Both the position numbers and the translations under genes were made by a program. Below, in pieces: positions 31,429 to 43,568 of a DNA stretch of 64,000 bases; the stretch's first letter is position 1, and every line of letters starts with the position of its first letter. This stretch comes from Escherichia coli (GTDB taxonomy: Bacteria; Pseudomonadota; Gammaproteobacteria; Enterobacterales; Enterobacteriaceae): NCBI RefSeq assembly GCF_003334315.1, contig NZ_QOWR01000022.1. One strand, given 5' to 3'. Below the pieces are notes generated by a model. It did no database searches. It worked only from the letters and a program-made list of their open reading frames with translations, and was not told the origin of the DNA.

Positions 31429-32481
31429 TTATTTACTCTCCTGCGGCGACAAATGTTGCATCGCCTGCGCGATACTACGTTCAATCACCGCACGGCGAGT
31501 ATCGTTGGCAGGTAAGAGTTTCAACATCATCTCCCACGCGGCAACGGCTTCGCCAAATCGCTGCTGCTCAAAGGCATTAAACGCATACATGCTTAGCACA
31601 CGGATATTGCTATGGTCCGTTCTCACCAGCTGACGTAGCAGTTCACCGCCGAGGCGGTTGTCGTTGGGATCAGATGAACGAGTCAACGCTTCAGCGTATC
31701 CCAGTGCAGCATCACTGTTTTTCGGATCGAGGCGATACGCAGTGGCGTATGCATCGGTGGCGATACTGGCGTTACCCAGCGCCATGCCAACGCGGCCCAA
31801 CATAATCCAGCCTTCTATATCTCCCGGATTTTTTTGCAGTTGAGTACGCATCCCCAGCGCAAGACGCGACATCTCTTCTTCGTTGAGCGGATCGGCTTTC
31901 GGATCCAGCGCCCTGTCCAGCAACGCCGGAGTCTGTGCCGTGGCCTGCTGCCAGATTTTCACCTGCTGATAATTGCCAGTCTGGTAGTAGCTGACGCCAG
32001 CCACAATTAACGCCACCACAATACCCGGCAGATAAACAACATATCCGGCACGCTTACCTTCCGGCACGCTTTGTTCAGGAAACGCTTCCGGCACCACGCG
32101 TACCCGACGCCGCGAGCGGGCGTATATGACCCAACCGCCAATGCCAATAGCCACTACTGGCAGCACCCACAGCAGCACGGTCAGCGGCGTTAACGGCGGA
32201 TCGTAAGTGACGAAGTTGCCGTAACGCGCCACCATATAATCGACAATCTCTTTTTTACTTTTACCTTCCTGCATCAGTTCATACACTTTCTGACGCAGGT
32301 CGGTGGCAATCATCGAGTTGGAATCGGCAATGCTGTTGTTCTGGCATTTCGGGCAGCGCAGTTCTTCAGTGAGCTGACGGAACTGTTGTTCCTGTGCTTC
32401 ATCTTTAAACTGCAACACATCGATGGTCGCCAGCGCTGAGCCGGAGATCATCAGCATCAGCACGCCCAATAAAAACCTCAT
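31429..32481 (-). CDS. ccmH: Cytochrome c maturation protein CcmH (fused CcmH/CcmI, TPR-containing)
   Basis: 350-aa ORF; LRCPKC motif near the N-terminus. Confidence 0.93.
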   Translation of the reverse strand: MRFLLGVLMLMISGSALATIDVLQFKDEAQEQQFRQLTEELRCPKCQNNSIADSNSMIATDLRQKVYELMQEGKSKKEIVDYMVARYGNFVTYDPPLTPLTVLLWVLPVVAIGIGGWVIYARSRRRVRVVPEAFPEQSVPEGKRAGYVVYLPGIVVALIVAGVSYYQTGNYQQVKIWQQATAQTPALLDRALDPKADPLNEEEMSRLALGMRTQLQKNPGDIEGWIMLGRVGMALGNASIATDAYATAYRLDPKNSDAALGYAEALTRSSDPNDNRLGGELLRQLVRTDHSNIRVLSMYAFNAFEQQRFGEAVAAWEMMLKLLPANDTRRAVIERSIAQAMQHLSPQESK

Positions 32482-33035
32482 TGTGCGGCCTCCTTACTGT
32501 ATTTCTCCCACAGCGGCTTGATCTCTTCTTCCCAGACGCGAGGATTCAGATCGCCCGCATGGCGATAGCGAATGATGCCGTTACCGTCAATAAGAAACGT
32601 TTCTGGCGCGCCATAGACACCGAGATCCAGCCCTAACATGCCATCGCCATCAAACAGGCTTAGCGCGTAAGGATTGCCCAGCTCTTTCAGCCAGCTGATT
32701 GCCTTCTGGCGATCGTCTTTATAGTTCATGCCGACCACGCGGATGCCCTGCGCAGAAAGCTGATTCAGATATTGATGTTCCGCACGGCAGGTCGGACACC
32801 AGGTCGCCCAGACGTTAAGCAGTACTGGTTTGCCCTGAGTCAGCACATCCGCCTGATAAAACTGCCCCGGATTGTCCAGTGATTCGAGACGAAACTTCGG
32901 CACAGGCTTGCCAATGAGCGCCGATTCCAGATTGGTCGGATCATCCCCTTCGGCATTACGCGCCAGCTGCCACAGCAGCGCCGCGGCAATCGCCAGGAAG
33001 ATAATCAACGGAATTAACAATACTTTGCGCTTCAT
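32478..33035 (-). CDS. ccmG: Thiol:disulfide interchange protein CcmG/DsbE
   Basis: 185-aa ORF with thioredoxin-like WCPTC motif. Confidence 0.95.
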   Translation of the reverse strand: MKRKVLLIPLIIFLAIAAALLWQLARNAEGDDPTNLESALIGKPVPKFRLESLDNPGQFYQADVLTQGKPVLLNVWATWCPTCRAEHQYLNQLSAQGIRVVGMNYKDDRQKAISWLKELGNPYALSLFDGDGMLGLDLGVYGAPETFLIDGNGIIRYRHAGDLNPRVWEEEIKPLWEKYSKEAAQ

Positions 33036-34975
33036 ACGGCCTCCGGCGCAGTTTTTTGCGGACTCACGCGCTTACGATAGCGAGGATCAAACAGACACAG
33101 CAGTCCGCCCAACGCCATCATCAGCCCGCCCGCCCAAATCCAGCGAACAAATGGTTTGTAGTAAAGACGCACGGCCCACGCGCCGTTTTCCAGCTCTTCA
33201 CCGAGGGCCGCGTACAGGTCACGCGTGATGCCGCCGTCAATTGCCGCTTCGGTCATCATCGACCCGGCAGTGTTGTAATAACGTTTTTCCGCATACAGCA
33301 CCGTTTCCGGCTTGCCATCGCGCGTTACGCCGATAGTCGCCACACCGCCACGCCAGTTCGGGCCAGTCACCTCTTTGACATCACGGAAGGTGAAGCGATA
33401 TTCATGAATATCGACGCTATCGCCGGACTTCATGCGCACATCACGCTCAACGCTATAGTTCTGGCTAAAGGCAATGCCAACAATTGTCACTGCCAGCCCA
33501 AGGTGAGCCGCCACCATCCCCCAATAACTGAAGGTGGTTTTCGTGCCGCGTGAAATACGTAGCGCAGCTTCCGCAATTGCCAGCACCGCAATCCAGCAGG
33601 CCATTGCCAGGCCGAGCACCGTCATCGCCACAACTTTGCTTTCGAACAGCCACGGCAACAGCAGCGACAGCACCAGCGTAGAGATGAAGGCGATAATCAA
33701 TAAATTGCGGATCTTACGCGGGCGATCCCGCCCCCAGCGCACCAGAGGACCGACACCAAGCAGTAGCGCAAACGGCACCATCAGCCAGGTAAACATGGTG
33801 TTGAAGAACGGTTCGCCAATCGAAATACTGCCCAGTCCCAGTTGCTTATGCACCAACGGCAGCAGCGTCCCCAGCAACACCACCAGCATCGCAGCGACCA
33901 GCAAAACATTGTTCGCTAACAGCAAAGATTCCCGCGACCACAGCGCATTGTTTACGCGTGAGCGAACTTTGTGTCCACGCGCGGCAAACAGCAGCAGCGA
34001 ACCGCCAATCACCAGCACCATAAAGGCGAGGATAAACATACCGCGCGCCGGATCAGACGCAAACGCGTGTACCGATACCAGCACGCCGGAACGCACGAGG
34101 AAAGTCCCCAACAGACACAACGAGAAGGCACTGATTGCCAGCAGTAATGTCCACGCTTTGAAGCTGGCGCGTTGTTCAGTGACCGCCAGTGAGTGCATCA
34201 GCGCAGTCCCCACCAGCCACGGCATAAACGAGGCGTTTTCTACCGGATCCCAGAACCACCAGCCACCCCAGCCGAGTTCGTAATAGGCCCATGCGGAACC
34301 GAGCACGATGCCGAGCGTCAGGAAGATCCACGCTGCCAGCGTCCACGGACGAGTAAAACGCGCATAAGTGCTGTCCAGACGCCCGCTCAGCAAAGAAGCA
34401 ATGGCAAAAGCAAACGCCACCGAGAAACCCACGTACCCCATATAAAGCAGAGGCGGATGGAAGATCAGCCCCGGATCCTGCAATAGCGGGTTAAGATCGC
34501 GACCTTCAATCGGGAAGTTCGGCAACGTGCGAGAGAACGGGTTAGAGGTAAAGAGAATGAACAGCAAAAAGCCGACACTGACCATCCCCATTATCGCCAG
34601 TACACGGGCCACAATATCCAGCGGAATACGCTGACTAAAAATCGCCACCGCAAAGGTCCAGCCGCTCATCAGCAGCACCCACAGCAGTAGCGAGCCTTCA
34701 TGCGCGCCCCAGGTAGCCGCCACGCGATACCACACCGGAAGCTGGGTATTGGAGTTGCTGGCAACATAGGTGACGGTGAAGTCGTTGACCACGAAAGCAT
34801 TGACCAGCACCAGAAATGCGCCAGCCACAGACATAAACAGCAGCCAGGCAAACAAGCGGGAAGACGCCATCATGCGCGCATCTCCGCGCGCCACGCCCCA
34901 TAGCGGATACACGGACAGCAGCAGCGCAATTCCCAGCGCCAGGCACAGCAGTCCGTTACCAATTTCTGGCATCAT
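33032..34975 (-). CDS. ccmF: Cytochrome c-type biogenesis haem lyase subunit CcmF
   Basis: 647-aa polytopic membrane ORF in the ccm operon. Confidence 0.95.
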
Positions 34976-42824: not shown

Positions 42825-43084
42825 GGTGTTTCCTCACCTTGCTCTTCCTGCTGGTGATAAACCAGCGACACCGCCAGCACGCCCTCTACGTTGCGTACTG
42901 ACTCAATGGTTTGGATCAGCGTTTCGCTGTCTTCTGCTTCCACCACCACAATCAACTGACCGCTCGGCGCGTCGCTGACAGCAACTTCACAGCCGGGAAA
43001 GGCGTTCAGTTGGGTGCTGATGTCTGAAATTCGTTCGCTTTTGGCCTGCACGACCAGGCTGCAAACTTGCCAGTTAGTGTGCAT
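42821..43084 (-). CDS. napD: NapA chaperone NapD
   Basis: 87-aa ORF overlapping the napA start. Confidence 0.9.
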
Positions 43085-43568
43085 GGAGATACTCCGCAGT
43101 TATGGCTGATACCGGACAGCTGGCTGCACATGCTCCACATCCGTTGCAAAGTTGGCTATTAAGTTGCGGCTGGTAGATCCCGGAGAGCGTCGGGCGAAAG
43201 ATAATTGCCATTGGCTCACAGCTATCCTGACAGCGGCGGCATTCAACAGACTGATACGCCAGGCACGCGTCCCCAATGGTGAACTGCAAATCCCAGGCCC
43301 TGGTGTGGCGCGGAGAAAATAGCGATTCGGGGCAAGCCTGCGCGCAGGCGTAACAGAAGCTGCACTCGTTATTTTTGAAATTAACGCTCGGATAGCCGCC
43401 CGCGCCGCGTTGCAGAATGTTGTTTTCACAAGCATTAATACAGGCGTCGCAGCGGGTGCAATGGGTCAGAAAATGAGATTCATCACCGGACCAGGGCGGA
43501 CGGATACCGTTACTGGCTTTGCGCCAGCGACCAGTGAGTATGCCCCGACGGGATGCATCAATCTTCAC
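43074..43568 (-). CDS. napF: Ferredoxin-type protein NapF
   Basis: 164-aa ORF with multiple CxxCxxCxxxC motifs. Confidence 0.92.
   Translation of the reverse strand: MKIDASRRGILTGRWRKASNGIRPPWSGDESHFLTHCTRCDACINACENNILQRGAGGYPSVNFKNNECSFCYACAQACPESLFSPRHTRAWDLQFTIGDACLAYQSVECRRCQDSCEPMAIIFRPTLSGIYQPQLNSQLCNGCGACAASCPVSAITAEYLHAH

Follow-up and report, generated by a model that had tools for sequence, protein, structure and literature searches.

The interval 31429-43568 of the window, by which we mean the whole 64,000-nucleotide stretch of Escherichia coli DNA analysed here, is an ordinary and intact nap-ccm operon, already known. Taken as a whole, it is very probably best explained as the chromosomal aeg-46.5 nap-ccm locus of Escherichia coli, in which we infer translational coupling at the ATGA junctions. 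Fifteen ORFs, all on the minus strand and arranged napFDAGHBC-ccmABCDEFGH, tile the interval completely, its two ends being the stop codon of ccmH and the start codon of napF. Each has a length that is a multiple of three and is free of internal stops. The initial annotation had described 15 co-directional genes with almost no intergenic space; indeed, only four small gaps are left between them, and non-coding DNA therefore totals 68 of 12,140 bp. Its further reading, a complete canonical nap plus System I ccm locus and no novelty, agrees both with RefSeq, where the same 15 genes are annotated at the same coordinates, and with K-12, to which the interval is collinear without indels.

Identity and completeness of the nap and ccm genes

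All proteins were inspected for their cofactor motifs, which are complete at this locus: every Cys and haem-binding motif that had been claimed to be intact was located in the translated sequences. Moreover, 14 of the 15 proteins exceed the curated cut-offs of NCBIfam equivalog or subfamily models, and the fifteenth, CcmH, is recognised by Pfam instead.

The nap genes come first. The napF gene (43074..43568, minus strand, as are all the genes below) starts with GTG and encodes a ferredoxin-type protein of 164 aa with 16 Cys and three canonical CX2CX2CX3C motifs, identical to that of K-12 (TIGR00402, 248 bits against a cut-off of 102). It is followed by napD (42821..43084), nucleotide-identical to K-12, for the 87-aa NapA signal-peptide chaperone (NF007840, 168 bits against 113). 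The catalytic molybdoenzyme subunit of 828 aa is encoded by napA (40338..42824; TIGR01706, 1655 bits against 931). NapA has a Tat signal motif, the N-terminal 4Fe-4S Cys motif CRFCGTGC and the molybdopterin oxidoreductase fold, and its residues 37-828 are matched by the E. coli NapA structure (PDB 2NYA). Two further ferredoxin-type products, both identical to K-12, are NapG (39636..40331, 231 aa; NF007012, 416 bits against 269) and NapH (38786..39649, 287 aa; NF007013, 471 bits against 234), the latter a membrane quinol dehydrogenase ferredoxin subunit with two CX2CX2CX3C motifs in addition to CX3CP motifs. The dihaem cytochrome c subunit NapB (38340..38789, 149 aa; NF008609, 329 bits against 230) has two CLQCH motifs, and the tetrahaem membrane quinol dehydrogenase NapC (37728..38330, 200 aa; NF007906, 463 bits against 349) has four intact CXXCH motifs and a gene nucleotide-identical to K-12. 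An upstream ATG at 38810 was considered as the true napB start and rejected, as positions 1-149 of the NF008609 model align to residues 1-149 of the annotated product.

The ccm genes are equally complete. The ABC ATPase CcmA (37092..37715, 207 aa, GTG start; NF010061, 333 bits against 195) shows the Walker A sequence GSNGAGKT and an LSAG signature, and the membrane subunit of the transporter is CcmB (36433..37095, 220 aa; TIGR01190, 317 bits against 156). The haem-handling WWD protein CcmC (35654..36391, 245 aa; TIGR01191, 282 bits against 186) contains WGTWWVWD. For this gene a TTG at 36415 was rejected as the start in favour of the ATG at 36391, chain C of PDB 7F02 covering residues 1-245 of 245. 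CcmD (35448..35657, 69 aa; TIGR03141, 67 bits against 26) is identical to K-12. The periplasmic haem chaperone CcmE (34972..35451, 159 aa; NF009635, 322 bits against 264) carries the H130-DENY motif, and the haem lyase CcmF (33032..34975, 647 aa; CcmF/NrfE model TIGR00353, 1016 bits against 569), whose gene is nucleotide-identical to K-12, has a WGGWWFWD motif. The thiol:disulfide oxidoreductase CcmG/DsbE (32478..33035, 185 aa; NF011941, 422 bits against 359) has the active site CPTC. The last gene, ccmH (31429..32481), encodes a fused CcmH and CcmI-like TPR protein of 350 aa with a CPKC motif and two Pfam domains, PF03918 CcmH at residues 7-130 (E 4.5e-50) and PF23914 TPR_CcmH_CycH at 173-330 (E 1e-60). 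Its sole NCBIfam match is to the NrfF exception model, where its 127 bits fall short of the 159-bit cut-off; because Pfam and the identity of 349/350 residues to K-12 establish membership, we read this miss as a gap in the library and not as a defect.

In functional terms, NapA (Mo-bisMGD/4Fe-4S, its Tat export aided by NapD and NapF) and dihaem NapB constitute the periplasmic nitrate reductase, which electrons from quinols reach through tetrahaem NapC and NapGH. Haem is loaded and released by CcmABCD, then chaperoned by CcmE, and covalently attached to CXXCH motifs by CcmFH with CcmG; the Ccm substrates include NapB and NapC.

Long plus-strand antisense ORFs also lie inside the locus, for example at 33534-34283 and 42165-42857; they are without supporting evidence.

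Control region and transcript ends

From established knowledge, the operon is transcribed from a promoter that lies upstream of napF, depends on FNR, is activated by NarP and is assisted by ModE; transcripts can extend through all 15 genes. The predicted FNR, NarP/NarL and ModE sites are found here with the expected spacing. A regular-expression search located a NarP/NarL 7-2-7 site, TACCCCGATCGGGGTA, at 43682..43697 (minus strand), which we attribute to NarP by presumed correspondence to the K-12 napF control region. Because of their degeneracy, FNR and ModE sites escaped this kind of search, but they were located by reading the sequence. The putative FNR site TTGATcctgCTACA (43703..43716, minus strand) is centred 20 bp upstream of the NarP-site centre, a spacing that we take to be the published -64.5/-44.5 geometry. 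A ModE-like palindrome, ATCGCTATATA-N6-TTTATAACCAT (43765..43792, minus strand), is centred 89 bp upstream of the NarP-site centre, presumably corresponding to position -133.5. A sigma-70 consensus scan of 30500-44500 gave no minus-strand match (5 matches in total, against 9.1 in shuffled sequences), as expected since the napF promoter is activator-dependent. A weak internal ccm promoter has been described in the literature, and the scan speaks neither for nor against it.

The gaps between the genes are all of 41 nt or less, and between them a hairpin scan found nothing that combines a strong terminator-like structure with a good T-run. In the literature, napFDAGHBC-ccmABCDEFGH is treated as one FNR-dependent operon (PMC10937671); FNR dependence is also reported in PMC10845959, and ModE activates nap (PMC8139620). 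Beyond ccmH, a terminator-like hairpin with a T-run (31223..31247, minus strand; 9 pairs, 6 GC, tail ATTTTTATTG), identical to K-12, is a candidate end of the nap-ccm transcript. A second hairpin lies right after the ccmH stop codon and has its T-run on the plus strand, so that it is terminator-like for the narP side (31400..31422; 9 pairs, 7 GC, tail CTCTTTTTAT). Both hairpins have the same stem sequence. These twin hairpins may let the convergent narP and nap-ccm transcripts overlap by about 200 nt, so that operon and regulator might engage in cross-talk at the RNA level.

Junction geometry and translational coupling

The distances from stop codon to next start codon, negative for overlaps, are -11 for napF/napD, -4 for napD/napA, +6 for napA/napG, -14 for napG/napH, -4 for napH/napB and +9 for napB/napC; then +12 for napC/ccmA, -4 for ccmA/ccmB, +41 for ccmB/ccmC and -4 for each of the five junctions from ccmC/ccmD to ccmG/ccmH. 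The 14 junctions thus comprise eight 4-bp ATGA overlaps, two longer overlaps (11 and 14 bp) and four gaps. The initial annotation had spoken of 4-bp or 1-bp overlaps: all eight junctions that it named are genuine ATGA overlaps, but none is of 1 bp, and the 11-bp and 14-bp overlaps had been omitted.

This junction pattern is enriched beyond chance. Junctions of -4 make up 8/14 in nap-ccm as against 1/27 among the remaining same-strand neighbour pairs of the window (Fisher p = 2.4e-4). The geometry of coupled pairs, a 4- or 1-nt overlap or a very short spacer, is found at the eight ATGA junctions and at one junction of +6, all within the -8..+6 class; this class accounts for 9/14 nap-ccm junctions but for only 707/2987 genome-wide in E. 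coli (binomial p = 0.0014; baseline from PMC10666635). The same junction distances have been tabulated for K-12, and COG-pair medians across 1,695 species are -4 or -1 for CcmC/D, D/E, E/F, F/G, G/H and NapD/NapA (Huber et al. 2023). The atoS/atoC pair in the window also has an ATGA overlap, included in the 1/27; in the annotation of strain Combat13F7 this overlap is masked by an IS1 in atoC.

Translational coupling at the ATGA junctions is plausible from their geometry. At each of the eight, a terminating ribosome would already sit on the next start codon and may reinitiate, with SD-like sequences inside the upstream coding ends possibly aiding it; in that case napA, napB, ccmB and, most of all, the run ccmD-E-F-G-H would depend for their translation on the gene upstream. 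The coupled overlapping pairs described by Huber et al. (2019, 2023) share the ATGA geometry, an SD motif within the upstream 3' end and complex-forming products. Complex-forming products are also encoded here (CcmABCD, CcmFH and NapAB), whereas coupling at this locus is a deduction from geometry. In the translational-coupling papers that were searched by term, neither nap nor ccm occurs in the main text.

A serious though less likely explanation is that the overlaps result incidentally from compaction of the genome and from the easy origin of ATGA, three of whose four bases come with the start codon, and that each gene is initiated independently from its own SD with little or no coupling. SD-like matches precede 13 of the 15 starts. 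The eight starts at the ATGA junctions are all among these, and their anti-SD duplexes are strong (-5.8 to -12.1 kcal/mol, all in the strongest 8% of locus windows); de novo initiation could therefore suffice. A precedent exists in E. coli bioBF, which overlaps yet initiates de novo. However, coupling was seen in the other four of the five native overlapping pairs that were tested in E. coli, and removal of the SD mostly lowered reinitiation (Huber et al. 2019). Coupling also declines steeply with distance (PMC10666635), and the medians of -4 or -1 at the ccm and napD/napA junctions, found in hundreds of species, argue for selection. Only ccmA, whose anti-SD duplex reaches just -3.3 kcal/mol, and ccmC lack an SD-like match, and neither overlaps its predecessor; SD and overlap thus do not simply trade off against each other in these data. 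Coupling at the ATGA junctions is plausible and is the reading that we prefer. Across the five consecutive junctions from ccmC to ccmH it would be a matter of known mechanism, raising no new question.

A more elaborate version of coupling, which we find doubtful, would have three ribosome relays on the nap-ccm mRNA. Ribosomes would enter at napF, at ccmA (+12, GTG) and at ccmC (+41), and then proceed by ATGA termination-reinitiation, with the hairpin cross-talk as a side option. If this were true, a single weak initiation and stepwise reinitiation efficiencies would determine the dose of the six-gene block from ccmC to ccmH, and the low-efficiency entry points at ccmA and ccmC would work as set-points through which Ccm levels are decoupled from Nap levels.

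It is very improbable that the overlaps are annotation artefacts and that the true start codons lie elsewhere. In-frame alternatives do exist for napB (ATG 38810) and ccmC (TTG 36415), and the version numbers of several K-12 protein records indicate revision. Nevertheless, the ccmC alternative falls in the 41-nt gap and that of napB lengthens the overlap, so that neither makes an ATGA junction. Moreover, NCBIfam models run end-to-end from residue 1 for NapD, NapB, NapC, CcmE and CcmG, the solved CcmC chain has the 245 aa of the annotated product, and in other species the same junctions, each represented by 147-507 gene pairs, have medians of -4 or -1.

Comparison with K-12 and other genomes

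The alignment to E. coli K-12 MG1655 is ungapped, with 44 substitutions in 12,140 bp (99.64% identity), and shows no indel and no frameshift in any of the 15 genes. The K-12 locus (b2208-b2194, NC_000913.3 2291358-2303497) has the same gene content, order, strand, gene lengths and junction distances. Only three amino acids differ, all conservatively: NapA D578E, NapB D54E and CcmH A184T. As many as 28 of the 44 substitutions fall in napA, of which one alters an amino acid. The similarity extends beyond the genes, since the narP-ccmH spacer is identical to that of K-12 and only one base differs in the 400 nt that precede napF; the adjoining yejO is intact in the window whereas it is disrupted by IS5 in K-12.

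The region is matched in all 5426 of the 5426 complete E. coli genomes searched, and in 5418 at least 80% of it is covered in one place; several of these genomes carry it at 100% identity, and one keeps only napF and part of napD. That overall similarity might mask a pseudogene or an altered function, so that the locus would be a decaying or strain-specific variant, is suggested by the concentration of 28/44 substitutions in napA and by that one reduced genome, but we give this practically no credence given the lack of indels and internal stops, the three conservative changes, the intact motifs, the single non-synonymous napA difference and the fully identical sequence in several sequenced isolates.

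The outcome of the check is thus negative: the interval contains no broken, rearranged or strain-specific element and can be set aside. The nap-ccm locus is a textbook one, structurally and genetically characterised. It belongs to the core of all complete E. coli genomes that were searched, and tables of its junction distances exist already for K-12 and about 1,700 species. System I ccm operons of other Proteobacteria, ccmABCDEFGH(I), encode the same proteins with the same motifs, and short overlaps at the CcmC-to-CcmH junctions are their median state. Vibrio natriegens, by contrast, has its ccm genes in a separate operon, for which a promoter of its own is predicted (PMC10937671).

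Gene content and integrity of the nap-ccm locus

The interval 31429-43568 holds a continuous chain of minus-strand ORFs without a break, bounded exactly by the ccmH stop codon and the napF GTG start. The RefSeq annotations of one identical genome and of K-12 MG1655 name these ORFs napF, napD, napA, napG, napH, napB, napC, ccmA, ccmB, ccmC, ccmD, ccmE, ccmF, ccmG (dsbE) and ccmH. By megablast, the interval was matched in all complete E. coli genomes (5426/5426), with at least 80% of it covered at one place in 5418 of these, and several isolates were 100% identical to it. Such a single place was absent in 8 of the 5426. 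In the complete genome of strain AH21C082 (NZ_CP196261.1, 2264702-2265366), the match is confined to napF and a portion of napD, or 5% of the locus, and one low-identity match (60-80%) was found on a plasmid.

We looked for a frameshift on the alignment to K-12 and found none, since this alignment is ungapped (44 mismatches in 12,140 bp, 99.64% identity), all 15 genes have their K-12 lengths and none contains an internal stop. Only three amino acids differ: NapA D578E, NapB D54E and CcmH A184T. Most of the substitutions (28/44, binomial p = 6.5e-10) lie inside napA (40427-42708), where all but one are synonymous; this cluster resembles a patch acquired by recombination from a different E. coli lineage.

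The initial annotation had described all Cys and haem-binding motifs as intact, and a direct motif check bears this out. NapA carries a Tat motif (RRSFMK) and CRFCGTGC, NapB two and NapC four CXXCH motifs; NapF, NapG and NapH have Fe-S Cys clusters, and NapH also CX3CP motifs. CcmA has Walker A and LSAG, CcmC and CcmF have WWD motifs, and CcmE, CcmG and CcmH contain His130, CPTC and CPKC, respectively. Fourteen of the 15 proteins scored above the cut-offs of curated NCBIfam models. For CcmH, NCBIfam gave only an NrfF match below cut-off; this protein, identical to K-12 CcmH at 349/350 positions, has a Pfam CcmH domain and a CcmH/CycH TPR domain, the known fused CcmH-CcmI architecture. E. coli NapA (PDB 2NYA) was matched over residues 37-828 and E. 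coli CcmC (PDB 7F02) over 1-245, its full span, which supports the annotated ccmC start. K-12 collinearity, motifs and family models thus support the view of a complete canonical locus rather than a novelty, and every aspect of it that was examined is already known.

Junction geometry and possible translational coupling

All junction distances refer to the annotated start codons, on which K-12 and the present locus agree. From napF to ccmH, the distances between stop and next start are -11, -4, +6, -14, -4, +9, +12, -4, +41, -4, -4, -4, -4 and -4, and only 68 of the 12,140 bp are non-coding spacer. All eight -4 junctions are ATGA, combining an ATG start with a TGA stop. These are exactly the junctions named initially as overlapping by 4 bp or 1 bp, but no 1-bp overlap occurs among the 14, and the 11-bp napF/napD and 14-bp napG/napH overlaps had been left out. 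The second codons of the overlapped genes (K, K, M, T, N, M, K, R) all begin with A, because the -4 geometry requires it (PMC12548453).

ATGA overlaps occur at 8/14 locus junctions vs 1/27 other same-strand neighbour pairs of the window (Fisher p = 2.4e-4); the sole other case is atoS/atoC (61740-61743). Nine of the 14 junctions fall between -8 and +6 nt, as do 707/2,987 (24%) unidirectional E. coli pairs genome-wide (Huber et al. 2023, PMC10666635; binomial p = 0.0014), and napB/napC (+9) and napC/ccmA (+12) belong to a minor peak at +9 to +12 nt that is specific to E. coli (PMC10666635). The enrichment is real, but documented before: Supplementary Table 2 of that study lists K-12 ccmF/G, E/F, D/E and C/D at -4 and ccmB/C at +41, as here. 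In its Table S4, which gives cross-species medians per COG pair, the median is -4 nt for CcmD/CcmE (n=231 gene pairs), CcmF/CcmG (n=380), CcmG/CcmH (n=373) and NapD/NapA (n=147), and -1 nt for CcmC/CcmD (n=238) and CcmE/CcmF (n=507).

Gene content, integrity and geometry are directly observed; from the geometry we infer that the ATGA junctions would couple translation of adjacent nap-ccm genes. In support, four of five native overlapping E. coli pairs tested were coupled (Huber et al. 2019), the effect is lost within about 20 nt of spacer, and the nap-ccm junctions are conserved across taxa (PMC10666635 and its tables). Against regarding the coupling as proven, the papers on coupling that were searched for ccm, nap and napD name none of them in their main text. 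Initiation may also be independent, since an SD-like sequence precedes each of the eight overlapped starts (anti-SD duplexes, -5.8 to -12.1 kcal/mol; locus background mean, -2.4). Among the 15 genes, only ccmA and ccmC have no SD-like match: ccmA (GTG start, spacer 37716-37727 after napC) reaches -3.3 and ccmC (spacer 36392-36432 after ccmB) -3.0 kcal/mol, both near background, and both starts belong to the four non-overlapping junctions.

The napF control region and the narP-ccmH spacer

Nap reduces nitrate in the periplasm with quinol electrons delivered via NapC and NapGH. By inspection of the minus strand upstream of napF, we found a perfect NarP/NarL 7-2-7 palindrome, TACCCCGATCGGGGTA (43697-43682), an FNR-type site, TTGATcctgCTACA (43716-43703), centred 20 bp further upstream, and a ModE-like palindrome, ATCGCTATATA-N6-TTTATAACCAT (43792-43765), whose centre lies 89 bp upstream of that of the NarP site. 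The spacings equal those of the K-12 napF promoter, with its sites at -44.5, -64.5 and -133.5; the 400 nt upstream of napF differ from K-12 by one base. The nap and ccm genes form a single FNR-dependent anaerobic operon, aeg-46.5 (PMC10845959, PMC10937671), and nap is activated by ModE (PMC8139620). The Ccm proteins export haem and link it covalently to apocytochromes with CXXCH motifs (PMC12285233), NapB and NapC included, hence the common promoter (PMC10937671). On the opposite strand, the annotated small ORF yojO (54 aa, 43677-43841, plus) overlies the napF control region, including all three sites, just downstream of a sigma-70-like match (TTGAGA-16-CATAAT, 43601-43628, plus).

At the other end, the 210-bp spacer between the convergent narP and ccmH (31219-31428) is identical to K-12. 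It contains two terminator-like hairpins with one common stem sequence, AGCCCGATGG...ATCGGGCT, at 31223-31247 (T-run on the minus strand) and 31400-31422 (T-run on the plus strand), and between them two REP-like palindromes (31272-31296 and 31340-31369). Each hairpin adjoins the opposing gene's stop codon, so that the 3' ends of the narP and nap-ccm transcripts would share an overlap of about 200 nt. In the MFE fold of the spacer, the two hairpin halves pair with each other.

Other features of the window

The autotransporter gene yejO (27660-30251, minus) is an intact 863-aa ORF, whereas K-12 MG1655 carries it as an IS5-split pseudogene. The gene atoC (61740-63125) is intact here and IS1-interrupted in strain Combat13F7, which is near-identical to the window over 205-43568 (100% over 205-1500). 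Positions 1-204 do not align to Combat13F7, which may point to allelic variation at this spot or to the boundary of an insertion near psuK. Rfam searches gave REP/BIME-derived naRNA4 arrays between eco and mqo (three matches, 44491-44800) and near rcsC (two, 56711-56901), MicF (52957-53050), a tRNA (27482-27555) and an L25 leader (23741-23766).
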